This document shows, piece after piece, positions 7,401 through 37,400 of a DNA stretch of 64,000 bases. The translations under genes were made by a program, and so were the position numbers. The DNA comes from Malacoraja senta. Taxonomy: Eukaryota. Numbering within the stretch: position 1 is the stretch's first letter; each line of letters starts with the position of its first letter. Below the pieces are notes generated by a model. The model made no database searches, was not told where the DNA came from, and saw nothing but the letters and a program-made list of their open reading frames with translations. Location: assembly GCA_038087875.1 (NCBI GenBank), contig CM075986.1, forward strand, positions 28,396,001-28,460,000. The letters are read 5' to 3'.

Positions 7401-10400
7401 ATCATGGCTGATCATCCAACTCAGTATCCTGTACCTGCCTTCTCTCCATACCCCCTGATCCCTTTAGCCACAAGGGCCACATCTAACTCCCTCTTAAATA
7501 TAGCCAATGAACTGGCCTCAACTACCTTCTGTGGCAGAGAATTCCAGAGATTCACTACTCTCTGTGTGAAACATGTTTTTCTCATCTCGGTCCTAAAAGA
7601 CTTCCCCCTTATCCTTAAACTGTGACCCCTTGTTCTGGACTTCCCCAACATCGGGAACAATCTTCCTGCATCTAGCCTGTCCAACCCCTTAAGAATTTTG
7701 TAAGTTTCTATAAGATCCCCCCTCAATCTTCTAAATTCTAGCGAGTACAAGCCGAGTCTATCCAGTCTTTCTTCATATGAAAGTCCTGACATCCCAGGAA
7801 TCAGTCTGGTGAACCTTCTCTGTACTCCCTCTATGGCAAGAATGTCTTTCCTCAGATTAGGAGACCAAAACTGTACGCAATACTCCAGGTGTGGTCTCAC
7901 CAAGACCCTGTACAACTGCAGTAGAACCTCCCTGCTCCTATACTCAAATCCTTTTGCTATGAATGTTAACATACCATTCGCTTTCTTCACTGCCTGCTGC
8001 ACCTGCATGCCTACTTTCAATGACTGGTGTACCATGACACCCAGGTCTCGTTGCATCTCCCCTTTTCCTAATCGGCCACCATTAATTTGTGGCTGACCCG
8101 ATCCTTGCTTCAGTCCCCTCCCTTGCCAGTTCTCTGTAGCACTCAACCTTGCTAGGATCCAATATAATATACACCTGAGCCGTGAACTGATTCAATGATA
8201 CCATCTCCACTGCTCTCCAGGGTAGAGAATTCCAGAGATTCATGACCTTTTAAAGAAAGATATTCCTCCTCATCTCAGTCTTTACTGGGTGACTCTTTAC
8301 AGTGAAACGGTCCACAGTTCTGGATTCCCCACAAGGGGTAGCATCCTTACTTCCTCCACCTTGTCAAGACCCTCACAATCTTAGCATTCAATAAAATTAC
8401 CTCATTTTCCTGAACCTTATTAAGCATTGACTGCATCTGGTCAAACTTTCCCACAGAGCCAAACACTTCATTCCAGGAGATAACCGATTCTAACTTGCTT
8501 TTAAAACAAGTCTATGCTCCTTAATTAAAGAAACAAACACAAGATGTAATACTCCACTTATGGTTTCACCCAAACATGCTGCTGTGGTTGCTGGACTTCC
8601 CCACATTGGTCCTCCATGCTCCATGCAATAAGGGCCATCATTTCACTTATCCCACAATGCCTCAGAAAAACATAAACAACGACTTGTCTCACCCTGGTCA
8701 TTCTTTTTTCTCCCCACTCCTGTCAGGCTGAAGGTTCAAAAGATTGAAAGCGAACACCACCAGACTCAGGAACAGCTTCTTCCACTCTGTTATCAGGCTT
8801 CTGAACGGTCCTTCCATAAGCTAGGGTACTGTCTGATTCACTTCCACCTCATCTACTGTCCGGTTCACCAATACCCCATTGCAGACATTGAACTTTGTCT
8901 CTGGAACTGGTGCACTACTGGGAGTCATAGAATCATAAAGAGATACAGTGTGGAAACAGGCTCTTCGGCCCAACTTGCCCACACCGGCCAACATGTCCCA
9001 GTCACAGCAGTCCCATCTGCCCACATTTGGTCCATATCCCCCCAAACCTGCCCTATCCATGTACCTGTCTAACTGTTTCTTAAATGCTGGGATAGTCCCT
9101 GCCTCAACTACCTCCTCTGGCAGCATGTTCCATGCACCCACCACCCTTTGTGAGAAAAAGTCACCCCTCAGATTCCTATTAAATCTTTTCCCCTTCACAT
9201 GAAACCTACAGTACGTCTTCTGGTCCTCGATTCCCCTACTCTAGCCAAGAGATTCTATGCATCTACCCAATCTATTCCTCTCATGATCTTACACACCTCT
9301 ATAAGATCAACCCTCATCCTCCTACGCTCCAAGGAATAGAGTTCCAGCCTACTCAACCACTTCCTATAGCTCAGACCCACTAGTCCTGGCAACAACCTCG
9401 TAAATCTTCTCTGTACCCTTTCCAGCTTGACAACATCTTTTCTATAACACGGTGTCCAGAACAGAACACAATACTCTAAATGTGGCCTCACCGATGTCTT
9501 ATACAACTGCAACATGACCCAACTTCAAAACTCAATACTCTGGCTGATGAAGGCCAATGTGCCAAAAGCTTTTCTGACCACCCGATCTACCTGCAACTCG
9601 ACCTTCAAAGAACCATGCCCCTGTACTCCTAGATCCCCCTGCCCAGAGGCCAACCATTTACCGTGTAGGTCCTGCCCATGTTAGACGTTCAAAAATGCAA
9701 CACCTCACATTTCTCTGTATGAAATTCCATCTACCATTCGTCCGCCCATCTGGCCAATCGATCAAGATCCTGCTGTAATTTTTCACAACCATCTTCACTA
9801 TCTGCAAAGCCACCCACTTTTGTATCATCTGCAAACTTGCTAATCTTGCCCTGTATGTTCTCATCCAAATCATTGTAAATGACAAACAGCACCAAACCCT
9901 GAGGCACACCACTAGTCACAGGCCTCCAGTCCGAGAAGCTACTTTCCACCATCACCCTTTGCTTCCTTCCATGAAGCCAATTTTTCTATCCATTCACCTA
10001 TCCCTCCTTGGATCCCATGCAAACTAACCTTCCAGAGCAGATTACCATGTGGAACCTTGTCGAATGCTTTGCTGAATTCCATATATAATGCATCTACAGC
10101 TCTGCCCTCATCATAAAACTCAATCAGATTTGCAAGACACGACCTCCCATGTACAAAACCATGCTGACTGAAGAAGGGTCTCGACCCAAAATGTCACCCA
10201 TTCCTTCTCTCCAGAGATGCTGCCTGACCCGATTAGTTACTCCAGCATTTTGTGTCTACCATGCTGACTATTGCTTATCTAAAGGCCTGTATATCCTAAC
10301 CCATAGAATACTCTGTAGTAACTTTCCAACTGCAGATGTTAATCTCACCGGCCTATTGTTCCCAGCATTTTCCCTGCAGCCCTTCTTGAATAGAGGCACA

Positions 10401-16400: not shown

Positions 16401-19400
16401 ACAGACATCTTTTTTTTAATATCAGATACACAAGGATTAAATATCTGGAATAACATAAAATGACCTTAAAGTGACCCTAAAGATCGAGGTAGAACATAGA
16501 ACGCTTCAGCACAGGAAAGGGCCCTTCGGCCCACAATGACATGATGCCGTTAAATTGGTTTCATCTGCCTGCACATGATCCATATCCCTCTGTACTCTAT
16601 ATGCCTGTCCAAAAGGCTCATACACCACTGTTGTATCTGCCTCCATCACCACTCCTGGCATTGCGTTCCAGGTCTCCACCACTCGGTATGTAAAAAAACT
16701 TGCCCCAAACATCTCAGTTAAACTTCCCCCGTTCCCCTGTGCCCTCTAGTTGGGCATTTCCACCCTGGGGAAAACGTTCTACCCCATCTATGCCTCTCAT
16801 AATTGTATGCACTTCTAACAAGTCTCCCCTCAATCTCCAACTTTCTAGAGTAAACAATCCAAATCTATTCTGAAACCCTCTGATCCAGACAGCATTCTGG
16901 TAAACTGCCTCTGCACCTTCTCCAAAGGCTCCACATCTCTCCTGTAATGAGATGACCAGAATTGCACGGAAAATGCTCCAAAGTCTGATCAAAATCCTAT
17001 AGAGCTGCATCATTACTTCCCGACTTTGATGTTCAATGCAGCTAGCAATGAAGTCAAGCACACCTTCTTAACCACCCTATCTACATGTGCTGCCATCTTC
17101 AGTGAACTATGAATATGGACTCCAAGATCCCTCTGCACATCAGTGCTGTTTATGGTCTTGCCATTAACAGTATAGTCTCTCCTTACATCCAAAGAGCAAC
17201 ACACTTGTTTGGATGAGAAGATATTTCTTCCCAGACAGTGGTGAATCAGTGGAGGTTTGCTGAGGCTCCGTTATTGAGTTCATTCACATTGGAGATGGAT
17301 GGATTTCCGGACATTAAAGAGATAAAGGGATACGGGGAGAGTGTGGGAAAATGGTACTGAGGTAGAAGCTTATCCACAGGTGTGATGAGGGCCAGAGAGC
17401 CTATCCGGCCTACTAATTGCTCATGTCCCTATGAAAGCAGCAAAGGAAGGCTATATTGGATAACACGCCATCTGCACTGTGTTCAAATGCAGTGCGCAGC
17501 CTGCGGTATAATATCAACCCAAAACACATTTATTTTATTGCCTCCATTATGAGTACCAGTTTTTATTTAATTACACATCATTTAATTATTTCAGTTAATT
17601 AAAATGGTGGTGGAAGTAGATTCAGTAGTGACTTTGTAAAGGGGTTTGTAAACGTACAAGATGGGAGATGGTGTGGGGCCAATGCTGCCAGCACAGGCAG
17701 ATCCACTTACTCTTCTCCGCCCGGATCCTCCTGGCCTCCACCGCGGCCACGTTGAGCCGCTGCTCGGTGTACTCCAGCCGGAGGTCCCCTCGGGCAGCCA
17801 GAACTCGCAGGGGGTTGCGCGACGACTGGGTTTTACGAGTGGGTCTCACTGCTCGCTTGTGTTCTGCCACCTCAAAGATCAGCCTGCAGGGACAAAGGCA
17901 GCATTAACCCAGCAACCGACCCAAGCTGCAGTCCATGTTGCTGAGTTCACCTGTTGAGTTCCTCCAGTACTGTGTGGCACCACATTGCAGCATTCTTGTG
18001 TCTCTATTAAAAATCAGCAACTCCCCTAGTCTTAATCCATCTTCATGTGCAAAGAGTAGCTGAATGGTTTTGTTGGAAGGAACTGCAGATGCTGCTTTAG
18101 ACTGACACAAAATACTGGAGGAACTCAACAGGTTAGGCAGCATCTCTGGAGAGAAGGAATAGGTGACGTTTCGGTTTGAGACTGGTCTGAAGAAGGGTTT
18201 TGACCCGAAACGTCACCTATTCCTGTTCTCCAGAGATGCTGCCAGACCCGCTGAGTTACTCCAGCATCTCACAGGAGGCTGCGAGTGGCAGACAGCTCCA
18301 AAGAGGCAGCGGAGAAGCTGGGCGTCAGATCCTCATGGCCGGACTCTGAGTTGGAGCATCAGGAGTGGACACGGCAGTGGTTGAGGTCGGGAACTAAGGG
18401 GGACCACAAATGAATTGTGTTAAAAATGGTTTGTGTTAAAATGGTATACTTGCATACCTTGGGTATACAAAACATAGCAATGTTACAAAATTTTGAGATT
18501 TTAAAAATCAAGTCTGCAATTTATCCCATCAGATAAAGCATAAAAATAAGTTTAATTTGACACCTAATTCATTTTCATATCTTCAGTATAACAAAAGTTA
18601 TGGCCATTTTCATACTTGGAAATTAGCATCTTGTTCCCTATTGCTTTTCCATTGACAACAGAAAAGCTGTGACCAAGGACAGTCAAAAGCCCATAACTTT
18701 CTTAAACATTAAGAGAACTGAAAGAAATGTTCAGTTATTATAGTTTGAAGCATTCTGAAACAAATATGAAACAATCTTACTTGGATGACCTGAAATTAAT
18801 TAGTTAGTTACCCAATTGTAGCTAATTACAAAATTCAATTACTAGATCTAAACATCTATCCATTTCTTAAGAAAAGATTAACATTTTTAAATAGCCTGTG
18901 TCCAAATAACATTCACACAAGAATTCACAATATAACATTATTTTTAAATCTCATTGTCATGGATTTATAGGCCAAATGGAAGGAATTTAGTGTTTAATTC
19001 CCATAAATTAATGGCCATTTAAATCATCTTGCGAGTGGGTTTTTGTGGAACACGATCGATTGGAACATTGCGGTTGCGGTGAATTTAAACCTCATATCGG
19101 CAGGATAAATACTGCCGGTTCGTATGGGTCCTAAATCACCTTTTCGCAACGTAAAATTTGGATTAAAGGCATCCTAAGAAGCACGTTTATATGTAAAATA
19201 AACGGCTTTCCTTTACCTGTCCCGTGCGTGAAATCCGTCCCCGTTGTCGGCGTTCACGGCATTAGAAGCTGATTTTTTAATTACTCCAGCGCTGAAATTG
19301 TCAGGCGATTAAAAAATATAATTCACAGAACGGCCGTCGGAACAAATCTTCAGCAAAAGCTTGCACTCCGAGAAAATATATCCAGGACAGGTAGGAGAAA

Positions 19401-22400
19401 AAACACATTTTAACCCCGCCCCCCCCCCCAAAGGCGGCAAAGTCGCGCACACGGCCAGTGACAGAACTGCAGCGCCGCTGAAGGTAAGTTTTGTAACATA
19501 CCTACAAAACAAAGAATATCACTGTGACTTGTCACATGTGACAATAAAGTATCAATAATGTTCTCCCTGTGACTGTGTGGGTTTCATCTGGGTGCTCCGG
19601 TTACCTTCCATATCCCAAAGACATGTGGGTATCCAGGTTAATTGGCCTCTGTAAATTTCCATTTGTGTTTAGGGAGTGGTATAAAAGAGAGCTAGTTTGA
19701 ATGGGTGATCAATGTGTGGCATGGATTTGATGGATCAAAGGCCCTGTTTCCCTGCTGGATCTCTCAACGAAACTCTAAACTCTCAATGAAATCAAAGCAA
19801 AACCTGAACAACAAAGATGCTTGAGATCTGAAGCAAAGTAGGAACTGCTGGAAGTTTGACCTGAAATGTTAACTTCCTATTTCCACAGATGCTGCCTGAC
19901 CTGCTGAATATTTCCTGCATTCGATTCTGCGTAATTATCTTAATTTGCTTTTGTTCTTGATTTCAGAGCTCAGCCTTTGCTCACAACTCAACACATCAAA
20001 CCTGCCATGCTTCCTGCTCACTCTAACATCCAGCATGGTGCAGCCGCCTCTGGCTCCTGCTCCCCTCACAGGTAATCGCAAGCCATAGTTGAAGGAACGG
20101 ATCTCAACCATTTTCCCCAATCCCATGTGACGGAAAGGTTACTCAACCTCCAGAAAAGCCTGCTGATCCAATTGTGACATCCAACTGCTTTCTGAAAGGA
20201 TTTCTCCTCCTTTGTTTGTACTTTGAAACCCATTCTATGTCCAGTATAGTGAAACCTCTTATTTCACTTGGGCAGCTTACAATCCAGCGGTATGAACCCT
20301 AATTATTCTAATTTCTCGTAACCCTTGCATTCCCTCTCTCTCTGTCCCTCCCCCACCCTGGTCGTCTTGCTAGTTTTAGTGTTCGTATCCCTTTGGTATA
20401 ACCTCCTCCACAGCCAACAATGGACCATTGTGGGCTCCTTGGCCATCTTTGCAGGATCTGATTTCTTCTGTACCTTTTCATATAAATCATTTCCCTTTCC
20501 CATGATTCTCAGTCTGAAGAAGGATCTTAACCCGAAACAGTCATCTATTCCTTTTCTTCAGAGATGCTGCCGGTCCCACTGAGTTATTCCAGCATTTCGT
20601 GCCTATCTTCGGTTTAAACCAGCATCTGCAGTTCCTTCCTACACATATATGGAATATATTCAAGGTTAGGGTTATCCTTTCTCTGTAACACTGTATTGCT
20701 ATTGAACTATATTCTGCACAGCCATTTTTCTCTTTGCACTTGTATATGGTCATCGTACTCATATATGTTATGAATTGACTAAGAGCTCACAAAACAAAGC
20801 TTTTCATTAATCTCAGTACATGTGAGAATAAACCAACACCTTTATTCCTCTCAGATGTTAACAGGTTCTTTACAACAAGCCAATTGAGTTCTTACTTTGG
20901 CGTGTTGCTTTCAAAAATGGCATCAAAGCTCTCTTCGATTTTCACCACAGTGGACGTTAGGAGGCTCGGTGTGTGCTTATAGAATTTACTGAAAGTGTCG
21001 TCATCATCTGGCCTCAGTACTTCCTTCACTGTTTGTTCTGTCACCGTGATGGTCGTCTCCTGGTTGCTGGCGGCTGAGGAAAGATCACATGAAGTCACGT
21101 CTGTTATCAAAGGCCTGGAAATACAGATAGTTGGAGATAATTCACGATTAATGAACACAAACAGCAACGGGAAGGAAAGGCCGATAATGTCCCGGAAACA
21201 GCACACCATCTATCGTAGTTTCATTGAAAGAAGCAGGCTGTTCATTTGTGCAAACTATGATCCCCTGAACAGTAATAAGATAAATAATTTTAGTAATATT
21301 TGCTGAGAATGTTTTTGTTTCCTCTGGGAAATAGGATCTTTCTAAAACCTGGGATGTTATAATCTGTACAAAAATGGGGTGAAGAAGGGTCCCGCCCCGA
21401 AGCGTCACCCATCCATTTTTTCCAGAGATATTGCCTGACCCGCTGAGTTACGCCAGCACTTTGTGTCTATCTTTGCTATAAACCAGCATCTGCAGTTCCT
21501 TGTTTCTACATGGGCTATTCGTGTCCACCTATGAAGGTTTATCATCGGCTTGGGAAGTGAAACATTCTGACAGAGTAGCACTCACACTCCACCGGTGATC
21601 TGTAAAGGTCAAACACATGTAAATACCACCAGTGTATATCTCTGATGGCTGATCCACTCTAAGCAGGAAAGTCCCAGTTACTCCCCTGGTCTCTGCTAAA
21701 GTTTATGAATTTAAGTCAGACAGGTTAGGTGTCTCAGTACTCATGTAATACATGTAAAACAAAGGAATGCCAGGGTTCTGGTTCTCTGTTTAGTAGATAC
21801 CGTGGTACAGACAGTTACGAGACTAGTAAGTATTATCTAGGAAATAGATATAAAATGCTGGAGTAACTCAGCGGGACAGGCAGCATCTCTGAAGAGAAGG
21901 AATGGGTGACGTTTCAGGTCGAGACTCTTCTCCAGAGATGCTGCCTGACCCGCTGAGTTACTCCAGCACTTTGTGTCTATCTTCAGTGTAAACCAGCATC
22001 TGTTGTTCCTTCCTACACTAACTATTATCCAGAGTCTGAACGAAAAACGTTAAGATGAGTTGCTGTGTCCCACCATGGCTGTTGTCAAATTTAAGGCCAG
22101 TTAATTCAATAATTTGTAATTGTCAAATAAAATGGACAACAGTCACAGGAGTTTCGACCAGCCCAGACCCGGGGTCCGATCGCCCGGCGCGGGGGAGCTG
22201 AGATCCCCTCAATGCGGGAGCTTGATCGCCCTGATGTGGAGGGCCTGACCGCCGGTTGCGGGAGCCAAGATCGTCCCGTCAACGGAAGGCTCGAGGCCCC
22301 CGACCACGGGAGGACAAAGAAGGGAGAGTTGAACTTTATTTTTGACTTCCATCACAGTGAGGAATGTGGAGGAGTCACTGTGGTGGATGTTTATGTTAAA

Positions 22401-25400
22401 ATGTATTTTGTGTGTTTTGTTGCTTTTTATTGGTATGACTGTACGACAAATCAAAATCCTCATATGTTGCAAAACATACTTGGTTAATAAAGTATGATTA
22501 TGATTTAGTTTACATTAAAATTTTGAGATACAGTGTGGAAACAGGCCCTTCGACCCATTGGGTCCGTGCTAACCAGCGATTCCGGCACACAAACACTATC
22601 CGAAACACACTAGGGACAATTTATAATTTTACCAAAGCCAATTAGCTTACAAACTTGTACGTCTTTGGTGTGTGGGAAGAAACCAGAGATCCCGGAGAAA
22701 GCCCAAGCGGTCATGGGGACAACGTACTCCATACAGACAGCACCCGTAGTCAGGGTCGAACCCGGGTCTCTGGCGCTGTATGGCAGCAACTCTACTGCTG
22801 CTGTTCTATGTTTTATGCATCCCTGGTTTCAGGTCTAGTTTCTGATGAACCTAACAGAGCAGGGGTGTCAGGGGTTATGGGGCAAATGGAGGAGAATGGG
22901 ATTAAGAGGAAAAGATAGATCAGCCATGAATGAATGGCGGAGTAGACTTGATGGGCTGAATGGCCGGAAGTGGCGGTGCTGCCCAAGCAGCTGCGGCTCG
23001 CCTGCAGTATGTCTGTCTTTTTTTCCCTTTTTTTCTTGTTGGACGTATATTTTAGTTTATTTTTAGTTGTGTATATGTGGGGGGGGGGGGGGGGACTTGT
23101 TTTAGTCTCTTCCTTCGGGGGGATGCGACCTTTTCTTGTCATATCCCCATCTCCGTCTGCGCTGAGGCCTAATCGCGGAGCTGGCAGCCTCTAACTGGGG
23201 CCGACCTCGATGCTCCGGAGGCAGAGCCAGGACTCACCATCGCGAGGCTGGCCAACTTCGGGGTTGTGGTGGCGCTGTGGCGGCAGCCCGACCTCGGAGC
23301 CTCGGAGGCTTCGGCCGCGGGCCCTGAGGATGACAACATCGGGAGCTCACAGGTCCCAGGTTGGTGACCGATTCTCCGCAGTTCCCGCAACAACAGCTTC
23401 GTCCACTGGACTGGAGGGTGGCAGCTTCGTCCGTCCTGGGCCACGGAGTTTGAACCGGCCCGTTCGCGGAGCTCGGATTCGGCCGCGGGACTTACCATCA
23501 CCCGGCGGGGGGGCCCAACATCGAAAGCCTGGATCGCCTCAACGCAGAGGGAGAACAAGGAAGGAAGGTACATGGACTTTAAGACTTTTGCCTTCCATCA
23601 CAGTGAGGAGATGCCTGGTAGACTCACTGTGGTGGATGTTAAACTGTGTTCATTGTGTGTTCTGTTATTTTATTCTCTGTTATGACTGCAAGGTATTTAA
23701 TTTCGTTCAAACTAACAAGTTTCAATGACAATAAAGGATGCTTTATACTTTATACTTTATTCTGCTTCTGGAACTTTTGAACTGATGAGGAGAACTTGAC
23801 CATTCTTTGAACAGATTCCTCCATTGCCTATGTATAACCTCCTCCATTCCTCCCCGATTCTGCCTTTCGTGCATTCCCAGTTTGCACTGGCCAACCGTGT
23901 CCTGGGAAGCCTGAGAATGAACTTCTGGAATTTTGTTAATAACCTTCAGGTGGCACAGTGGCACAGCTGGTGGAGCTGTTACCTCACAGACCCTTACAGC
24001 ATCAGAGACCCAGTTCAATCCTAATCTCCACCGTTGGCTGTGTTAAATGTTCTCTAGATGCCAGCTGATCTACATCGGTGAGACCAAGCGGAGGCTTGGC
24101 GATCGTTTCGCCGAACACCTCCGGTCGGTCCGCAATAACCAACCTGAACTCCCGGTGGCTCAGCACTTCAACTCCCCCTCCCATTCCATATCTGACCTCT
24201 CTGTCCTGGGTCTCCTCCATGGCCACAGCGAGCAACACCGTAAATTGGAGGAAATGCACCTCATATTCCGCTTGGGCAGTCTACATCCTGGGGGCTTGAA
24301 CATTGAATTCTCCCAATTCTGCTAGCCCTTGCTGTCCCCTCCCCTTCATCAGCCCTCTGGTTGTCTCCTCCCCTCCCCCAGCCCTCGGGCTCCTCCTCCG
24401 CCTTTTTCCTTTTTTCCTTTCTTCTCCCCACCCCCTATCAGTCTGAAGAAGGGTTTCGGCCCGAAACGTTGCCTATTTCCTTCGCTCCATAGATGCTGCT
24501 GCACCCGCTGAGTTTCTCCAGCATTTTTGTGTACCTTAAATGTTCATATTTTGGTTACAGTGGTTTCCTCCCATATAACAAGATGTGCATGTTGATCGGT
24601 TAACTGGCCATTGTAAATTGACTGTGGTATGTAGGCAAGTGGTAGAATCTGGGGGGATTGATAAGAAAGTGGGGTGGATTTTTTTTTAAAGTGCTGATAT
24701 TATGTTTTCAAACCATACAAGTGAACATGCGGCTGAAACTCTGCTCTGGGTGATGGGTCCTTATCCAAAAACTCAGTCATAGGGGATTCATTTTAACTGA
24801 GTGGTTTGCAAACACAACAGCAATGCAAGCGATGCAATCTGCAGTGTGGAATGAGTGAGATGTTTTGACATCATAGACATCTACATCGGCATAATTAACA
24901 AGTTTCCCTTTTCTTCCATTAGTGAAATAATTTTATCGTAAATTCTGATGAAAGGATTGTGATTAATGACTAGCGATTTCTAAAACATAGAGCAATTACT
25001 TTGTATTTCACTGCTTCATACATTTCCTTCTACCCCATCAGAAAGAGAACTGTGCTTAGCAATGTTACAAAATTTTGAGATTCTAAAATTAAAGTCTGCA
25101 ATTTATCCCATCAGATAAAGCATAAAAAGAAGTTTCATTTGACACCTAATTCACTTTCATATCTTCAGTATTAAAAAAGTTATGGCCATTTTCATACTCG
25201 GAAATTAGCATCTTGTTCCCTATTGCTTTTCCATTGACTTAACACAAAAGCTGTGATCGAGGACAGTCAAAAGCCCATAACTTTCTTAAAAATTAAGAGA
25301 AATGAAAGAAATGTTCAGTTATTATAGATTGAAGCATTCTGAAACAAATATGAAACAATCTTACTTAGATGACCTGAAATTAAAGCATATAATTAGTTAG

Positions 25401-28400
25401 TTACCTAATTGTAGCTAATTACAAAATTCAATTACTAGATCTAAACATCTATCAATTTCTTAAGAATAGATTAACATTTTTAAATAGCCTAAGTGTCCAA
25501 ATAACATTCACACAAGAATTCACAATATAACATAATTTTTAAATCTCATTGTCATGGATTTACAGGCCAAATGGAAGGAATTTAATGTTTAATACCTGTA
25601 AATTAATGGCCATTTAAATCATTTTGCGAGTGAGGTTTTCTGGAACGCGATCATTTGGAACGTTGATTTGCGGTGAATTTAACCCCGTATCGGCATGAAA
25701 GATTCTGCCGTTAGTTCGGGGAAAAGAATCACCGTTTCGCATTAAAAAATATGAATTAAAGGCTTCTTAAGAAGCACTTTTATACATTAAAACTTCTGTT
25801 TACCTGTCCCGTGTGTGAAATCCGTCCCCGTTGTCGGCGTTGACGGCTTTCGAAGCTGATTTAAAAATAACTCCAGCGCTGACATTGTCGATTAAATAAA
25901 AATAAAAAATACACAAAGCCCCCGTAGGAACGATTTTTCAGCAAATGCTTGTACTCCAACGAAATATAATACAGGACAAGGTAGGAGAAACCCACGTTTT
26001 AACCCCGCCCCCCCCTTAAAGGCGCCGAAATCGCGCACACGGCCAGTGGCAGAATTGCAGCGCCGCTGAAGGTAAGTATTGTAACATACCTACTGTGTTT
26101 CTTAAATTTTCAAGATATGAACCTATTTAAAACCGGCTCCAAGTACCTTTAACACCGTAAATATATCAATGTTCACCTGCACATCTGCTGTTACTGGTTT
26201 TTGACTCCGTTAAAATGAGCTATAATTATGACTGAGGATTTGGTCGAGACAGCATCACAACAGCAGAGAGCGCTGTTGGTGCATGTTCTGCAGGGTTTGA
26301 ATACATAGCAACAGCATATTAACTGACTACAAGATTCTTATTCAAACCCTCCTACAATTACCTTACCAGGCAACACATTTATTCATCATCTGCAACCACT
26401 TCATAGTTAGTGCTGCATTGGAGCTGAGCCAATATTAGAGAATGTGGACAGACACAAATGGTGGAGTAACTCAGTGTGACACGCTGAGTCAGCATCTCTG
26501 GAGAAACGGAATGGGTGACGTTTTGGCACAAAACCCTTCTTCAGACTGAGCGAGTTTCTACCTGAAATGTCACCTATTCCTTTTCTCCAGAGATGCTGCC
26601 TGCCTGACTGTGAGAAAGGGGTTAATAGGTAAAGTTGATTTAAACTAAGGACCCTGAGAAATAGCTGAGAGTAGACGAGCTCTCCGCACGAACACCCGAC
26701 AGCGCTCGACTAGATAATAACCGAAAGAACAACTGGTGACATTTCAAGGATGAGAAAAAGGAGATAGCAACAGTCCGGAAAGAACTGGGGTAAAGGGCAT
26801 GAACAACTCTCTAGTGCGCATGGGTAATGAGACAAATGAATATTGCAAACACGCCCATCATGACAAGATGTCTCATTTAAATGCACATGCGATGTATGAT
26901 GTGGAGGCACCAGGGGCGGGACCGGTAGAGTGTGCATCTCAGTGCTCTGATTTGAAAGGAGCCCGAAGGGGAGGAATAAATGTAACAAATGTAAAATGAT
27001 ATGAATAAAAGAGAGTGACTTCCCGACCTCGGTGTGTCTCGACAGGGGAGGCACCCGAATCTGCAGACTTGCTAATAAATAAACTTGTTTCTCTAATTTC
27101 TCTAGCATCGTGATTGTGAGCACTCACTTTTTAAACCTCACAAGCCTGGGGACTCGTCTTGGGATCGCCACTCCGGCCAGCTGGCGGCGGTATACGGGAG
27201 AAGGGACGGTGCACCCCGCTGATTCAGCGGCCCTGGACCCCTTGCTTGCCGTCAGCGGTTTGAGCGAGTGATATCCCAGACCAGAAATTAGAGAAACAAG
27301 TGGGAGTAGTTGGAAATCGCGAGGAGCCAAATCGAGTGATTCTTGTGCACAGGACCCGGGTAAGAAAACGACTATTAAGTACTACTCGGGCGATTAAATA
27401 GATCGGAGGGAAATTCCAATCGGAGGATGGGCAATGAAAACAGAAAGCCCAAAAGGGAGGGGAAGGGCGGTAAGCCCGACCCCCGCATTCTGCCTGATAG
27501 TCCGTTGGGGCGAATGCTGAGCCTCTGGGGGCAAGGAAATACCCAGGGATTTTATATATGTGATAATTATTTTGTTTACTGTATTTGTAGATCACATTGT
27601 AAGAGTAAGTAAGTAAGTAAGTTTTATTAGAATCAAAAATGTCCACTGTAGGTAGGTGTATGTTCCTTTAAATAAATTAGGTCATGGTGAAAGGCGAGGA
27701 ACAGCTGTAAGATAACGATTAATTGTTTGTATCCTCGTAACCTAGAAGGGGAAGTTGTAAAATCAGCTTTTGGTTTTTCTGATGTTCTTTTAGATTTCTA
27801 GTCAGTAAAGTTAATTTGGAAAATTGTTACTAGTGCTAGGAATTGGACATTTAAAATAGTGGTGAATATGGATTGAAATAATTGGAAATAAGTTAATTGG
27901 TAGACATTCAAGTTTAGAAAGAAAGGAGAGAGAGAGGCAGTTAGGAGATAACAGAAGTAGAAAAACGACAGGCGTGAAAGTAATAAAGCAGGAGGAGTCA
28001 GTGGAAGATTTAAAAAAGAAAGGTGAATGAATTTGCAAGGAGGCTAGAATATTTGAGAAGCAAGAAATTGAGTTTAGAAAAAGAAAGAAGGCATACCAGA
28101 AAGGAAGCATAGGGATGAGACTGTGGGAAGCATAGGGATGAAACTGCTTTAAAGAGAAAAGAGAAGGACAGACACGGATTATCCCTTGGGGGCACCCATA
28201 AACTGAGAGGGCTAAAAAATACCTCGCCCTATATCCCTGATGGGGGAGGAAATGGATTAGGGCTTTGGAGGAGGAGAACGTGGGACGATTATTGACCATG
28301 GAAGATTTGAAGGCACTGTTGGTAAAAGTGATAGGAACCACTAAAGTGACAGAACTACTGAAGATGGATGGTATAAACTGATGCGAACAATGTAATAAGC

Positions 28401-31400
28401 AATGGCATACTGTTTGACAGTCAGGCAGAGGGTATGGCAGGCCCTCAGACAATGTAATCCAGCAGCCTATCTGGAAAACCAGCTGAAAAGGTGGAGAGTT
28501 GATTGATGAACATTATATTATGAACTACTGTGGTGGATGTCATTCTTCTTAAAGTCAAGCAGATTGGAGAAGGTGGTGAGATTGTCATTAATTTCCCACC
28601 CCTGATTCAGCGAACAGTTGGTCTCTGCGGTCGAGAAATATCGCAAAGATATGAAAAAGACTTGCAAACCAGCAGGAGGAGCTGTTGTCAATAAACAATG
28701 GACCTGGTTGAAAAGACAAGTGAGTCCTTTGACGGAACCAAGCAGGGCTAGAGAATTACATGCCAATAATGAATGTCTTTGGGGAACGTTTCCTCAAAAA
28801 GTCCTATCAGGAGTGAAATTAATCTGGATATAAGCCCTAACAGGACTGGGGTCCCCAAGAGAGAAAAGGATTTAAAGGAGGATTTGTTGGTATTGTTGCA
28901 TAAGTGAAAAGTGATGTAAGAGAGAGAGAGAAATAATAATAATAATTTAAAAAAAAATACTTCAGAATGTAGGACAGAGGATGATAACCTTGGGAAAAGG
29001 CAGGATATAGTTCAGACTAGATTAGGTATAAGCCCTGTAGTGTCGTTTATGATGAATAAGGTAATTAAGAGGTTTGGTAGACCTACAGAAATCAGCTTTG
29101 ACAACGGATTGATTTCATTTAGGGAGTAGCCAAGTTGGTGATAGAGACCCTTAGAGTAAAATACACATTTGGGTATGTAACACCTACAGTCACAGGCATG
29201 GTGGAAAGAATAAATGGAACATTGAAGGTTAATATAAATAAGATTTGTTTAATTACAAAGTTGAATTGGATCGATGCCCTGCCATTGGCACTGAAGAGAT
29301 GTTGCATGCAAACTAACCGAGCTGGTGGCACAATGGAGAGGTCCCTACAAGAGACCGAGTTTGGAACAGTTAAAGATAGAATTTTAAAAGTATATGAAAC
29401 AGTTAATTATGATATACAAGTCTATTTATGAACAGGTAACGTAAAAGCTGTTGGAGGTGGACCAGGAGGAAGGACCCTTTAAACCTGAAGACAAGGTGTA
29501 TGTATGAGTTTACTAAACTACCGACCGATGTTCAGGTAGAAGGTTGATATACCTGGTACCATTTCAATAATTACATGAGGGCTGTCCTGCAGGTATGAAT
29601 AGATAATAGCCCTGAGGTAAGTGAACAGGAGGACAAAGATGTGAGAAAAGAGTAGAGTTTTAACAAGAACGTTGTTTGACATCAGTGGTGGGCAAAATAA
29701 TGGAAAGGATACTTAAGACAATATATAAGAATTTGGATAAATAGGGTAGGATTAGGAAGAATTAGCATGGATTTGTGATTGTGATGTTTGACTAATCTTG
29801 AATTTTTTGAAAAGGTTATTTGACAAGGTTCAATAAGGAAATAAGGTTGGTTAAGAAGGGTTAGTAAGGAATAGCAAGATGGATTAAAAAGTGGCTGTAT
29901 GGGAGATGTCAGAGAGCAATGGTGGATGGATGTTTGTCAGGTTGGAGGTCAGTGACTAGAGGGGTACCTCGGGGATGTGTGTTGGGTCCACTGTTGTTTT
30001 TCATGTGAATCAATAATCTGGATGTTGGTGTGGTAAAATAGATTAATAAGTATGTAGATGATACTAAGATAGGTGGTGTTGTGAATAAAGAAGTAGATTT
30101 TAAAAGTGTACAGAGAGATTTGGGTCATTTGGAAGAGTGGGTTGAAACATGACAGATGGGTTTAATGTTGATAAGTGTGAGGTAATACATCTTGGCAGGA
30201 CAAATCAAAATTGGACGTACATGGTAAATGATTGTGAATTGAGGAATGAAGTTGAACAGAGGGATAAGGGGGAAATCCTTTAAAACCGAGATGAGAAGAA
30301 CTTTTTTCACACAGAGAGTAGTGAATCTCTGGAACTCTCTGCCACAGAGGGTAGTCGAGGCCAGTTCATTGGCTATATTTAAGAGGGAGCTAGATGTGGC
30401 CCTTGTGGCTAAAGGGATCAGAGGGTATGGAGAGAAGGCAGGTACGGGATACTGAGTTGGATGATCAGCCATGATCATATTGAATGGCGGTGCAGGCTCG
30501 AAGGGCCGAATGGCCTACTCCTGCACCTAATTTCTATGTTTCTATGTTTCTATGATCTAGGAATAACTGTGCATAGTTCCCTGAAGGTGGAATCTCATGT
30601 AGATAGGATGGTAAAAAAAGATTTTGGTGTGTTGGCCTTTATAAATCAGAGCATTGTGTATAGAAGTTGAGTTGTAATATTAAATTGTACAGGTATTGGT
30701 GAGGTCAATTGTGGAGTATGGTGTATAATTTTGGTAGGCATAATTATAGGAAAAAGGTCAACAAAATAGAGAGAGTACAGAGGAGATCAATTAGAATGTT
30801 GACTGGGTTTCAGCAACTAAGACACAGAGAAACGTTGAACAAGTTAGGTCTTTATTATTTAGGAAAGATAGAAGGGGTCCCAACAAATACAAGGGAATGA
30901 TGTATTCCTAAGGAACTATTTACTGGCAGTATCTCGTTCTATTACATAATTAAAAACCAAGGGGCTGCTGGCACAGAGTTCCCATCTCGACTTTCCAATC
31001 CATTCTGTAAAAGTGAGGGACTGGGATCTTGTAACATCATGGAAGGAAGAAAAGTTGCAACCCCGTTGGACTGGTCCATATTTGGTATTATTAACCACCG
31101 AGACAGCAGTACGAACAAAAGAAAAAGGGTGGACACATGCAAGCCGATTTAAAGGTCCTGTGGAGGCCCCATCAGACAATATCAGCCCGTGGACTGTGCG
31201 CGAAGGGAAGGAACCATTGACTTTGGTATTCACCAAGACCCCACACGGAAAATGAAGACTTCGTGCTGGTGGATCGTGTGTTGGGTGGTTACCCAACTCA
31301 TGAGTTGTATAAAAATGACAATACCACAGAATAGAAAGTCCACCACCATCCCATTTAATGTATGTAAAGGAAAATGGTGGTGTGGCTATAGGATGTATGT

Positions 31401-34400
31401 ATGCACCCATCCCTGTAAAAATTGGCACGCGGTGTTCACTTCATCAAGAGATGGGTGGCATCAGCCCACCTATCAAACTGGGAGGTGGAGAGTATATCAA
31501 AACCCAAATGAGGGATTGCCAGGACGCCGCCATCATGGCCTTTAGAACACAGTATGACCAGCGAGAGGAAGATAGGGAGGTGAAGATTCTGCTGTTAGCA
31601 CTAGAAAAGGAGGAAATAGTATAAATCAAAGTAGCGTAGCAAAAGAAAAAGGGTGGATTGTGAGAAAGGGGTTAATAGGTAAAGTTGATTTAAACTAAGG
31701 ACCCTGAGAAATAGCTGAGAGTAGATGAGCTCTCCGCACGAACACCCAACAGCGCTCGACTAGATAATAGCCGAAAGAACAACTGGTGACATTTCAAGGA
31801 TGAGAAAAAGGAGATAGCAACAGTCTGGAAAGAACTGGGGTAAAGGGCATGAACAACTCTCTAGTGCGCATGGGTAATGAGACAAATGAATATTGCAAAC
31901 ACGCCCATCATGACAAGATGTCTCATTTAGATGCACATGCGATGTATGATGTGGGGGCACCAGGGGCGGTACTGGTAGAGTGTGCACCTCAGTGCTCTGA
32001 TTTGAAAGGAGCCAGAAGGGGAGGAATAAATGTAACAAATGTAAAATGATATGAATAAAAGAGAGTGGCTTCCCGACCTCGGTGTGTCTCGACAGGGGAG
32101 GCACCCGCCTCTGCAGACTTGCTAATAAATAAACTTGTTTCTCTAATTTCTCTAGCATCATGATTGTGAGCACTCACTTTTTGAACCTCACACTGACCCA
32201 CTGAGTTACTCCAGCATTTGGTGTAAACCATCATCTGCAGTTCCTTCCAACACATTAAGTTCCTAGCACTTCCATCTGACAATAGACAATAGATGCAGGA
32301 GTAGGCCATTCAGCCCTTTGAGCCAGCACCGCCATTCAATGTGATCATAGCTGATCATCCACAATCAGTACCCCATTCCTGCCTTCTCCCCATATCTATC
32401 TAACTCTCTCTTGAAAGCATCCAGAGAACCGGCGTCCTCTGAGGCAGAGAATTCCACAGATTCACAACTCTCTGTGTGAAAAAGTATTTCCTCATCTCTG
32501 TTCTAAATGGCTTACCCCTTATTCTTAAACTGTGGCCCTGGTTCTGGACTTCCCCAACATCGGGAACATGTTTCCTGCCTCTAGCGTGTCCAAACCATTA
32601 ATAATCTTACATGTTTCAATAAGATTCCCTCTCATCCTTCTAAATTCCAGAGTATACAAGCCCAGCCGCTCCATTCTATCAACATATGACAGTCCCGCCA
32701 TCCTGGAAATTAACCACAGCCTGACATAAAAACAGCTTTTTTCTACGAGTAGTAGCTCTACTCAATAACCAAAAGTCTATCGCCTCCTTTTGCTCTGTTA
32801 TTTTATTTCATTCACATGTTTAAACTATAATGTTTTATTCTTAATGTTTTATGTTTTATTCTTAATTGTTTACTGTATGTCGTGTTGTTACTTGCGAGCG
32901 GAGCACCAAAGCAAATTCCTTGTATGTGAATACTTGGCCAATAAACTTATTCATTCATTCATTTTGTCTGCTCCACTCAGAGAATGAGGTGTTGAATAAC
33001 CTCTTCAATTGCCCGTGATATTCGGATGCATTGTAACTAGAGGGCAAGTGGTGTTCTTAGCCCAAATTAATGGCCAATTGTCCATTCAGTTCCCTAAGGG
33101 ACCCCAGACAGAGGAAGAACTTTGAACAGAAAATTAAAGGTATCAGCCTTACTTTTGGAATGGAGTTTATTGAGGAAGGTCTCCAAGCTATCCAAAGTAG
33201 CATCACTCTCCAGGGGCACATCAGAACGACTTGTAATCTCTGTAAAGTAGAGTATATAGCGTCAACAATCCAAGGGAGCATTAGGATCAAGAAATGTATC
33301 TTCAATTGAAGTATCAAACACAACGATGTTCCACAGGCATATTGTACTTTACCCTCTGACAGTCATTCCATTGAATTCATTAGAAGTGAACCCGAGTGGC
33401 AGAAGACAACATGCCAACACTGCAATATACATGAGCAAAACAGGATGCTGCAGGAAATCAGCAGGTCAGACAGCATCTGTGGAGTGAATGGACAGATGAT
33501 ACTTTGGGTCAGAGCCTTTCTTCAGACTGTCTGAACAGGTTCCCAAACCGAACATCACTCGTTCATTCCCTCCATAGATGCTACCTGACCCACAGAGTTC
33601 CTCCAGCACTTTGTGTTTTACTCAAGATTCCAGCATTTGCACTCTCTCGAGTCTCCATTTTATTACAATGGTCATGTCTACAACTGAACCACTCCTCCAG
33701 ATTCTGAAAAATGAAAATTACATTTTGGTTCACCAATATAAAGTCCAGATACTTGATTATCCCTCGAAAAGAACGTGGTCCTAAATGTTTTCACACAGAC
33801 ATCTCGGGGAAATGAATTTCTGACTTATTTAGTCTGTGTAAAAATGGAATGGAATCTTATATCTTTCCATTTTATTTTCAGTTCAACTCTTTGGTCTCCT
33901 TCGTTATATACTGAGGTATAACTTGCCCAGATTGAGCTAATAAAAGGAATGGGATAATGTTAATATTCAGGACAAATTGTGTTTGTGTGCGAGGGGTGGG
34001 AAGGAAGGAATGAAAATTGGTGATATTGTAAGCAGGGTGAGAGTTTGGCAATGGAGGTCATTCAACTCAGGCACTGGGCTGTCTGTGAGGAAAGCCCTTG
34101 GTCACTATCAAGAAGATGGTGGCTCACTGCTTACATTAAAGGTCTGGCAAACCAACACGTCATACCCATACTGAGCTGCCCCTGAGATAGTGGTGCTGAG
34201 CCCTGCACTCGTTCCAGATTCCATGACTTTCCTGCTTTAACCATGGATTTGTGGGTTTCCAAGATGGCCTGGACTTTGTTAACAAAAGTACTGAATAAAA
34301 TGCGGCAGAAAGTCATACAATTAACCGGCAATTTGTTTGCCGGGACATGGCACTGATCCCACAGTGTCAACAGTAGTTTGGTTTAGTTCAGTTTAGAGAT

Positions 34401-37400
34401 ACAGCATGGAAACAAGCCCTTCGGCCCACTGAGTCCACACCAACCAGCGATCCCCACACACTTACAGTATCCTACATAATAGGGAAAATTTAGCAAGCCA
34501 ATTAACCTACAAACCTGAAGGTACACAAAAATGCTGGAGAAACACAGCGGGTGCAGCAGCATCTATGGAGCGAAGGAAATAGGCAACGTTTCGGGCCGAA
34601 ACCCTTCTTCAGACTCCATAGATGCTGCTGCACCCGCTGAGTTTCTCCAGCATTTTTGTGTACCTTCGATTTCCCAGCATCTGCAGTTCCTTCTTTAACA
34701 CAACCTACAAACCTGTATCTCTTTGGCCTTCATAACAAGAGGAGTTGAGTATAGGAGCAAAGAGGTCCTGCAGTTGTACAGGGCCCTGGTGAGACCACAC
34801 CTGGAGTATTATGTGCAGTTTTGGTCTCCAAATTTGAGGAAGGACATTCTTGCTATTGAGGGAGTGCAGCATAGGTTCACGAGATTAATACCCGGGATGG
34901 CGGGACTGTATATTTAATCAAAATATGCTAATCGCTTCCCTTGACATGGGACAGGCAAAGACCCTCCACTGATACTACCTGTTCTGGATCACATAAAGGC
35001 ACAAGCAACACAAATAAGCTTATTCGCAATTAGCTGCATCCAATCTTGCAGTCTAACCTAAATGGCATGGCTTTAGACTCTAGACTTTAGAGATACTGAG
35101 CGAAGACAAGGCCCCTTGGTTCACCATGTCTACGCCAACCAGCAATCACCACATTCACTATCACTATCCTACACAGTAGGGACAAGTTACAATTTACCGA
35201 AGCCAATTAACCCTCAAACCTGCACGCCTTTGGAGTGTGGGAGGAAACCAGAGCACCCGGAGAAAACCAATGGGATAACAGGGAGAACGTACAAACTCTG
35301 TACAGACAGCATCCATAGTCAGGATCAAACCTAGGTCTCTGGCGCTGTAAGGCAGCAAATCTGCCACTGCACCACTGGGCCGCCCAAAAATGTTTCATCT
35401 TTCAATGTTTAGATATGTTTAAAATCTATCCTCCAGCTATGAATGTGCTCCTGAATTTACTTCATCAGATCCTTTGCCAGACAGGAAGTGACTTTCTCAC
35501 TGGTTATTGAGCAAGTGTCAGGCCACATGAAATTAACCCCATGTAGAAAAGCTTCATCTCCAGTTACGCTATCTGCAAGTTGGAATACATTACTCCCACC
35601 CTTCCGTCAAATTGTTTGCAAGTGTTAGTCTGTAACATAACCAATTCATCCGATATCCATTCCTAGGCTTTCATGGTGGCTTTCCCGGCTCATTAGATCT
35701 GCCTGCCTATCCTCACCCCATTCCCAACTTCCACGCAGGACAGACCTTCAACTAGGACAAGTTCCAGCAAGTATGAATAACTGGAGTCATGATACAGGAT
35801 GAACAAGCTTAAACAGAACCTATTGCTGTGTGGACAACTACAAAAATGTCATTTATGTGGATCGCTGGGATAACAAATTAATAAATTATATAAATCAAAA
35901 TATCTCTAAAAGTCCAAATTCTAAAATAAAACAATGCGAGCTGAAAATACAGAGCATAGAAGCATGAAGAAGGGTCTTGACCTGAAACATCACCCATTCC
36001 TTCTCTCCAGAGATGCTGCCTGTCCCACTGAGTTACTCCAACATTTCGTGTCTATCTTCGGTTTAAACCAGCATCTGCAGTTCCTTCTTGCACATGAAGG
36101 ATTTGTTGGTGGGATGAGATAATTGTGGGTGAGCAGAGGTTGTGGTGCATGGGTACATGAGCAGGTTGTTGGACCAAATGTGCTGTTAACAGCTGTGAAC
36201 TCAGGCAGGCCCTTGCCCTCGGTGGCTCATGCTAAAGGCAATGGATCCTAATGTTTGGTAGAAGAGGCTGGCATGGCCGTGCCAATACCTCTGCTTAACT
36301 TGATTGGTCGCAGATGCATTTCTGCCCAGCAAACTCTACTGGATTGTAATTAGATGTATGTGGGATTGGAATTGTATTTTGTGCTGGACTAAAGGATGAT
36401 TCATGACCAACATAGCAGCAAGGGAATTTTCAATAAGGTTACGATCTATTAAACTAATAAACCAGAGGGGCCTGAGGGTGACTTGGTCTAGGGGAGGTCC
36501 ATCATGAACCAGAATCTCACTCCAAGTTTAATCCTGGAGTGGAGACTGGAGGTCTGACTCTGAATTCATGCTGCTATCCACCAGGTGGGGAAGGTCTTGT
36601 GCTTCATCCTATGGCCATGGGAACTGGCAACGGCCTTCAGCCACACTGGGACAATCAGACATCATTCAGTTTGACAGTGATTCTTGCCATGCATGGAGTA
36701 TTTCAATGGCATTTCAATGGTTTCTATTGTCACGTGTACCAGGTAGACTGAAATACAATGTTTTGCATACAGCTCAGCAAAAGTATCTCTCCAGTCAGTA
36801 AAGTATGCACAGAACAGCCTACCGAGTCCGTATGCTCCAGTCAAGAGTATTTGATTGTCATATATACCAATAATGGAACAACACCATCTTTACTTGCAGT
36901 AGCTAACAAGCCCATAAACGCAATGTGCACAGATAAATATAACAATTACAATTTCAATAAATTAATAACTATACTAGTGCAAACAAAAAGTCCATAGTGC
37001 AACCAAATACACAGCGCATAGAAGTTCATATGTGCTGAAGTTAGTGTTGTGTAGTGTTCAATAGCCTGATGGTTGCTGGGAAGGAACCAAAGCCAGCAGC
37101 ATAATCAAGGACCAGTCCCACTTCCTCTTCTCCCCTCTCCCATCAGGCAAGAGATACAGAAGTTTGAAAACCCTTACCTCCAGATTCAGGAACAGTTTCT
37201 TCCCAGCTGTTATCAGGCAACTGAGTGGTCCTCTCACCAACTAGAACGGATTCCTGACCTCCCATCAACCACATTGGAGATCTTTGAACTATCTAATGGG
37301 CCATTGAACTTCAATGATATATCTTTGCACTAAATGTTATCCCCATTGTCCTTTACTCATGAACTGTGGATGGCTTGATGGTCTTCATGTATAATCTGTT

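Follow-up and report, generated by a model that had tools for sequence, protein, structure and literature searches.

We analysed a 64,000-nucleotide stretch of the genome of the skate Malacoraja senta (assembly GCA_038087875.1, contig CM075986.1, positions 28,396,001 to 28,460,000 of the forward strand; hereafter 'the window'). Positions 26609–32192 of the window hold a single integrated provirus with long terminal repeats (LTRs), a primer-binding site (PBS) and a polypurine tract (PPT); its parts read on the plus strand. The 5′ LTR (26609–27142) and 3′ LTR (31659–32192) are each 534 bp long, run from TG to CA and differ by 15 mismatches and no insertions or deletions (indels; Kimura two-parameter distance, K2P, 0.029), exactly the number that an earlier annotation of these letters (the original prediction) had put at about 15. 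The 5′ copy carries AATAAA at 26975, 27004, 27074 and 27078. Upstream, the left half of a short interspersed element (SINE; 26560–26608) ends in CTGAC (26604–26608); the same five bases (32193–32197) open the right half (32193–32235), and an intact SINE near 36000 in the window aligns with the two flanks as its consecutive halves. The paired LTRs, the target-site duplication (TSD) and the split SINE together identify 26609–32192 as one integration.

Within this unit, class I skate LTRs, PBS, leader and PPT surround 3.3 kb of foreign sequence lying in the same sense. On the 5′ side of what we refer to as the shell, the PBS position (27147–27165) was read from the sequence; by eye we take it to be of the tRNA-Pro type. 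A run of 41 stop-free codons (27427–27549), after which the sequence turns abruptly AT-rich, is presumably the start of the shell gag: we assign it by its position together with a motif suggestive of the family, and it found no match in Pfam and no usable match in Atlas. On the 3′ side, the linker and C-terminal domain of the shell integrase (30856–31255, start approximate), interrupted by one frame change and one stop, are of the murine leukaemia virus (MLV) type (Pfam MLVIN_C, E = 2e-7; MLV integrase C-terminal domain 2m9u, E = 1e-9) and 78% identical over 127 aa to P0025, a pol of the little skate Leucoraja erinacea. The shell env N-terminus follows (31252–31527), with 92 stop-free codons before a large deletion. 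It is 80–83% identical over 95 aa to the Logan env records P0005, P0006, P0010 and P0011, which continue across the stretch deleted from the provirus. Beyond the deletion lie a probable env 3′ tail (31528–31624), placed there by position, and the PPT (31638–31656; 17 of 19 bases are purines). The longest of the env relatives (P0006, P0010 and P0011) stop at 301–326 aa in tails unlike each other, and the env of the shell-related family may be defective though its pol is intact. An immunoglobulin-like domain that we had suspected by eye in these relatives was discarded, with no Pfam match for P0010 or P0006 and no significant PDB match for P0005.

The middle of the provirus derives from a different retrovirus. 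The original prediction had noticed a distinct gag-like piece around 28250–28330; the peptide in question begins at 28250, inside a capsid-region stretch of gag (28157–28683) that has decayed and belongs to a second class I lineage, of fish type; three frame changes, three stops and two internal deletions break it. Its nearest named relatives come from the stingray Hemitrygon akajei, and for one stingray relative the nearest Atlas clusters are Gag-like, at lead-level scores. Just upstream, a C-poor segment (27550–28156; 8–13% C) is possibly the decayed upstream gag of the same virus; a gag profile did not place it, with its match at 27945–28166 falling short of significance (independent E-value 2.4). 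After an intervening stretch (28684–28979), an integrase core, linker and C-terminal domain extend over 28980–29583, with three frame changes and five stops. This is the integrase with a C-terminus of its own that had been claimed for the middle; its nearest named relative comes from the bamboo shark Chiloscyllium punctatum, and against PDB its core gave weak integrase matches only (best E = 0.58). This fish-type class I lineage may be ZFERV/SSSV-like, a name that serves as a lead only. Two of the Hemitrygon records related to the second gag, P0068 and P0139, end by eye in a segment resembling an env transmembrane region, which suggests from sequence that a separately deleted family may exist in the stingray.

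The two integrases belong to separate lineages. A 24-row tree placed the two provirus pieces on opposite sides of a branch supported at 100/100, and forcing them together was rejected (approximately unbiased, AU, test, p = 9.4e-7). The tree relied on here omits the unnamed shell-side rows other than the Logan protein P0024, described below; further trees gave the same split. Gag and integrase of the middle both fall in with records from shark and stingray, in a lineage apart from the shell. The trees thus confirm the two integrase lineages from which recombination had been proposed on the strength of two C-termini. Also in line with that proposal, no retroviral protease, reverse transcriptase (RT) or RNase H was found by six-frame Pfam scan, by a pol profile or with 29 long relatives (>500 aa): the profile and relatives matched only the gag and integrase pieces, and the sole RT match across six frames belongs to the non-viral passenger described next (RVT_1, E = 2.6e-6). 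The provirus contains no intact gag, pro, pol or env.

Between the two integrases lies a long interspersed element (LINE) passenger. The RT fragment that had been annotated at 29670–30860 is present, but it proved to be two elements, a young 3′ end nested in an old fragment, and this nesting had been missed. The old RT fragment occupies 29670–30261 (start approximate) and 30555–30856; in between, at 30262–30554, sits the young 3′ end with a (TTTCTATG)n tail, flanked by GAT on either side. The pieces show LINE-type RT similarity and a tandem-repeat 3′ tail, and we take them to belong to the CR1 family. The young 3′ end, 293 bp long, is 99% identical to positions 42579–42870; its divergence is lower than that of the LTRs, which fits insertion after the provirus had landed. 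The old fragment is ~67% identical to a long host CR1 copy at 8900–10400. That copy, which reaches 11500 on the minus strand, is itself split by a SINE near 10170–10260.

The 3′ part of the old CR1 ends at 30856 in a junction with the shell integrase that recurs outside this locus. The shell integrase query returned P0024, which is a chance frame running from decayed CR1 into integrase at the same place, and all seven members of its cluster (28 contigs summed) cross this junction. Their CR1 part is identical to the embedded CR1 at 17 of 18, 30 of 35 and 21 of 24 aa, as against 8 of 13 at best for host CR1 copies in the window, and the frame of P0024 needs a 1-base insertion that all six host CR1 copies (6/6) lack. 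In the integrase tree the provirus groups with P0024 (97/95) on a common stem of 0.12 changes per site; relative to P0025 the two have 11 changes in common, eight of which are absent from five named ray and shark outgroups. Nevertheless, 17 of 112 residues distinguish the two integrases, against a mean of 6.4 expected from the LTR divergence. In 5000 simulations at LTR divergence, 17 differences were never reached (0/5000), and a DNA divergence of about 5–9% fits. Since the junction and the decay are shared between copies too divergent to stem from this insertion, both predate it. Judging from these comparisons, at least the 3′ seam is older than this insertion and has been copied; P0024 most likely represents a separate insertion. 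A further record, P0074, lends weaker support on the gag side, where it shares decayed residues of the second gag (27 of 33 identical, including two residues absent from ten relatives).

Downstream of the shared junction, P0024 takes its own course. Its tail departs from the integrase at 31231 into an env-like segment that the provirus lacks, omits the env start that the provirus keeps, and could have arisen either by a different deletion or by splicing. A GLQNTV / GL*NTV match of this tail, seen by eye only, was not recovered by PAM30 tblastn. Within the P0024 cluster (P0113–P0118) we noted two frame types with the same V/A variant, a hint of two or more close copies or of recombination.

The age of the insertion spans a wide range at published rates. 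At the rate that PMC4422223 assumes (2.2e-10 per year), a K2P of 0.029 translates into 65 million years; the mammalian rate quoted in the same source gives 6.5 million years, and 7e-10 per generation (PMC10587355) gives ~20 million generations. The LTRs are thus 'young', as they had been called, in a relative sense only, and absolute youth (at millions to tens of millions of years) is not supported. The interior has suffered more: the second-virus pieces carry six frame changes in 1126 bp, compared with zero indels between the LTRs (P = 0.018), and the shell gag and env starts are stop-free while the middle is ruined. P0024, which has diverged yet keeps the CR1–integrase junction, directly supports the view of the original prediction that decay preceded insertion.

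An intact helper had been proposed as a search target, and an uninterrupted helper-like pol was indeed found, albeit in a sister lineage. The L. erinacea class I pol family (XP_055491949.1 and cluster), like P0025, keeps RT, RNase H and integrase together in one 882-aa frame, whereas the provirus is without retroviral RT. The shell groups with this little-skate family as its sister (support 100/98); to the middle integrase core, the little-skate pol is only 51% identical over 39 aa. Six of the 882-aa records differ mutually by 1–4 residues, and the cluster's eight named members come from sequences with six different lengths, which together suggest that the cluster represents a recently amplified, pol-intact sister family of the shell. 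The longest sequences behind the env and pol clusters agree in size in five cases, suggesting that the shell-related env and pol may come from the same virus.

Whether the shell deserves the HERV-I label that it had been given is less clear. The closest named relatives of its pol are skate, ray, shark and bird pols, with no named HERV-I reference among the matches, and a PBS that we take to be of the Pro type gives no pointer to HERV-I proper (tRNA-Ile). PBS usage is described as an unstable trait (PMC4724089). The label is unproven; a HERV-related ERV of the lemon shark cited in PMC4422223 and the resemblance of HERV-IP to avian ChiRV1 (PMC4724089) are compatible with it but indirect.

Taken together, we consider it probable that the provirus is one copy of a non-autonomous recombinant endogenous retrovirus (ERV) family, generated by a double template switch and copied by helpers. 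In this scenario we infer the joint packaging, how many captures took place and the helper. An old, already deleted fish-type provirus with a CR1 insertion would have been transcribed and its RNA packaged together with that of the shell virus. During reverse transcription the template would have changed twice, near 27550 and near 30856, so that gag-pro-pol was replaced, and the recombinant, having kept its cis signals, would have been copied in trans by intact helpers. The family would then have decayed further and split into sublineages before the present copy landed in the SINE; after landing, the LTRs would have diverged by 2.9% and the young CR1 3′ end inserted at 30262. The P0024 cluster, with its common CR1–integrase junction, supports the earlier suggestion of a non-autonomous, vector-like element that spread as a unit.

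A number of observations weigh against this reading. Sharing is demonstrated for the 3′ junction only, and the evidence for other copies consists of protein records that come without flanks or LTRs; none of ten open reading frames of the window had an exact match in the protein collection. P0074 is barely closer to the decayed gag (27 of 33) than is the best intact gag relative (25 of 33). The simulation assumes equal rates for LTRs and integrase, and breakpoint microhomology is merely hinted at by a GL-x-Y peptide overlap at 30844–30858, at the protein level. The little-skate pol, 22% divergent from the shell, represents a sister lineage and not necessarily the helper. Finally, the single-cargo route is an argument from parsimony.

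The most serious rival is the same non-autonomous family built stepwise, with separate captures of the second virus and of the CR1, the latter taken up directly as LINE RNA or inserted into a master copy. The family does keep changing, as seen in the env structure of P0024, the later CR1 insertion and the two frame types of the P0024 cluster. Against this, one composite donor requires just two switches, and the CR1 lies directly behind the second integrase and shares its sense, as an ordinary insertion in an old provirus would. We regard stepwise assembly as possible but distinctly less likely than capture of a single cargo.

Decay in place, with nested insertions and an LTR pair later homogenised by conversion, would make P0024 an orthologue in another skate. 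Slow chondrichthyan rates (PMC4422223, PMC10587355) render insertions shared across skates plausible, and a single LTR pair may fail to reveal conversion, which the original prediction had itself named as a potential refutation. The LTR mismatches, however, are evenly spaced (longest identical run, 103 bp; P = 0.55) and so give no sign of partial conversion; full conversion could still have occurred. Neither a third LTR nor an internal repeat left by a nested virus was found inside the provirus, every piece lies in sense, and stop-free shell gag and env starts sit beside a ruined middle. We therefore judge this course of events to be improbable. Still harder to sustain is a break-repair event that, after integration, replaced the interior of this single locus with a templated patch of host DNA: retroelement DNA is reported to be captured at such breaks (PMC4516963), but P0024 has the same junction at a divergence beyond what the LTR pair allows, and the decay shared by the shell integrases predates their split. 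An assembly chimera can practically be dismissed, for although the window contains six N-gaps, the nearest lies >15 kb from the provirus, the TSD and the two parts of the SINE are consistent, and independent records contain the same junction.

For the recombinant family that we favour, retained cis-acting signals would matter, and the 5′ end of the provirus offers a candidate. A perfect 19-bp pairing between 27083–27101, directly behind the final AATAAA of the 5′ LTR, and leader positions 27283–27301 encloses the PBS and probably marks a cis-acting 5′ RNA structure (27083–27301). It is the only perfect inverted match among ten pairs, where it is listed twice since the LTR is duplicated. The enclosed region, which was picked after the match had been seen, folds better than every one of 200 shuffled sequences (z = −5.1), and a wider region scores z = −2.3. 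Only the 5′ end allows the pairing, which could therefore mask the 5′ poly(A) site or give structure to the region of packaging and priming. ARAGORN and Rfam scans of the window returned no matches. With regard to base composition at this end, CpG transitions account for five of the 15 differences between the LTRs, and all five sit in the 3′ LTR (p = 0.06), and the leader is not CpG-depleted (observed/expected 0.99); from sequence, this pattern hints that the 5′ end may have escaped methylation.

A second compositional feature is the scarcity of C on the plus strand, which amounts to 7–9% in 29670–30856 and 27550–27950, compared with 13–17% in host CR1 copies read in sense. A first strand-bias test against one host copy was equivocal (C-to-T 39 versus 15, G-to-A 69 versus 41; p = 0.066 for the frequency of C-to-T compared with G-to-A). 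At conserved positions, the embedded CR1 has changed 18 of 26 C and 17 of 56 G (p = 0.0016), and a host CR1 copy 10 of 25 C and 17 of 53 G. A C-poor CR1 subfamily would account for the loss of C equally well as loss written during replication. Consequently speculative—and in our view doubtful—is the idea of an ancient, long-lived skate vector lineage that carried a LINE and a second virus for millions of years, kept its 5′ RNA structure while its coding remnants were free to decay, and had its C loss written at the RNA or RT stage and not by decay in the genome. If this were true, cartilaginous fish would offer a long-term natural archive of mutation by deaminases or during the RT phase.

Elsewhere in the window, we noted a 1-kb interspersed repeat pair (25057–26093 and 18475–19505; 87% identical), the first copy of which lies just upstream of the provirus, a 0.5-kb repeat pair (24052–24545 and 46955–47463; 94% identical), and adjoining 18-bp and 15-bp minisatellite arrays at 52077–52837 with open frames on both strands.

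The closest known parallel is recKoRV, the koala KoRV-PhER hybrid, in which class I LTRs, leader and env end likewise surround an older, dissimilar and degraded interior; as described in PMC6112702, these hybrids also have a TSD, no intact genes, a dependence on helper integrase and breakpoints common to several loci. The skate provirus differs in residing in a cartilaginous fish and in being far older, the KoRV invasion being dated there to <50,000 years, and also in that its cargo includes a LINE RT fragment and its shell remnants had decayed before the copies diverged. Among human proviruses, Harlequin and other mosaic HERVs have recombined and then reintegrated (PMC4724089). Like them, the skate provirus has the same LTR at both ends and no third (criterion 2 of PMC4724089) and all its pieces in sense, which is part of that article's criterion 1 for reintegrated defective recombinants. 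Most human mosaics in that account join related viruses, whereas the skate partners are deeply separated class I lineages plus a LINE. Mouse ETn/MusD (PMC6466679) and the bovine D-type ERVK[2-1-LTR] (PMC10924933) are similarly non-coding LTR elements that coding-competent relatives mobilise; they are class II elements for which those articles show mobilisation, a step that we infer for the skate provirus.

By analogy with these systems, the skate element is probably a recombinant of the recKoRV, Harlequin or ETn kind that spread as a hitch-hiker, like the koala and human hybrid proviruses. We found no paper on such a skate element or on a CR1-carrying recombinant provirus; Repbase and Dfam lay outside this search, and the family may be catalogued there. 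The architecture is already known, and the picture of the mechanism is unchanged by the skate provirus; new are the cartilaginous-fish host, the LINE passenger and the signs of a long-lived family. LTR dating here tells how old the insertion is but is silent on the age of the interior, and ERV surveys based on RT would miss families of this type. The finding would extend the recKoRV route, in which a retrovirus disabled by recombination with old genomic debris is mobilised again, to cartilaginous fish and to a far longer time-scale.

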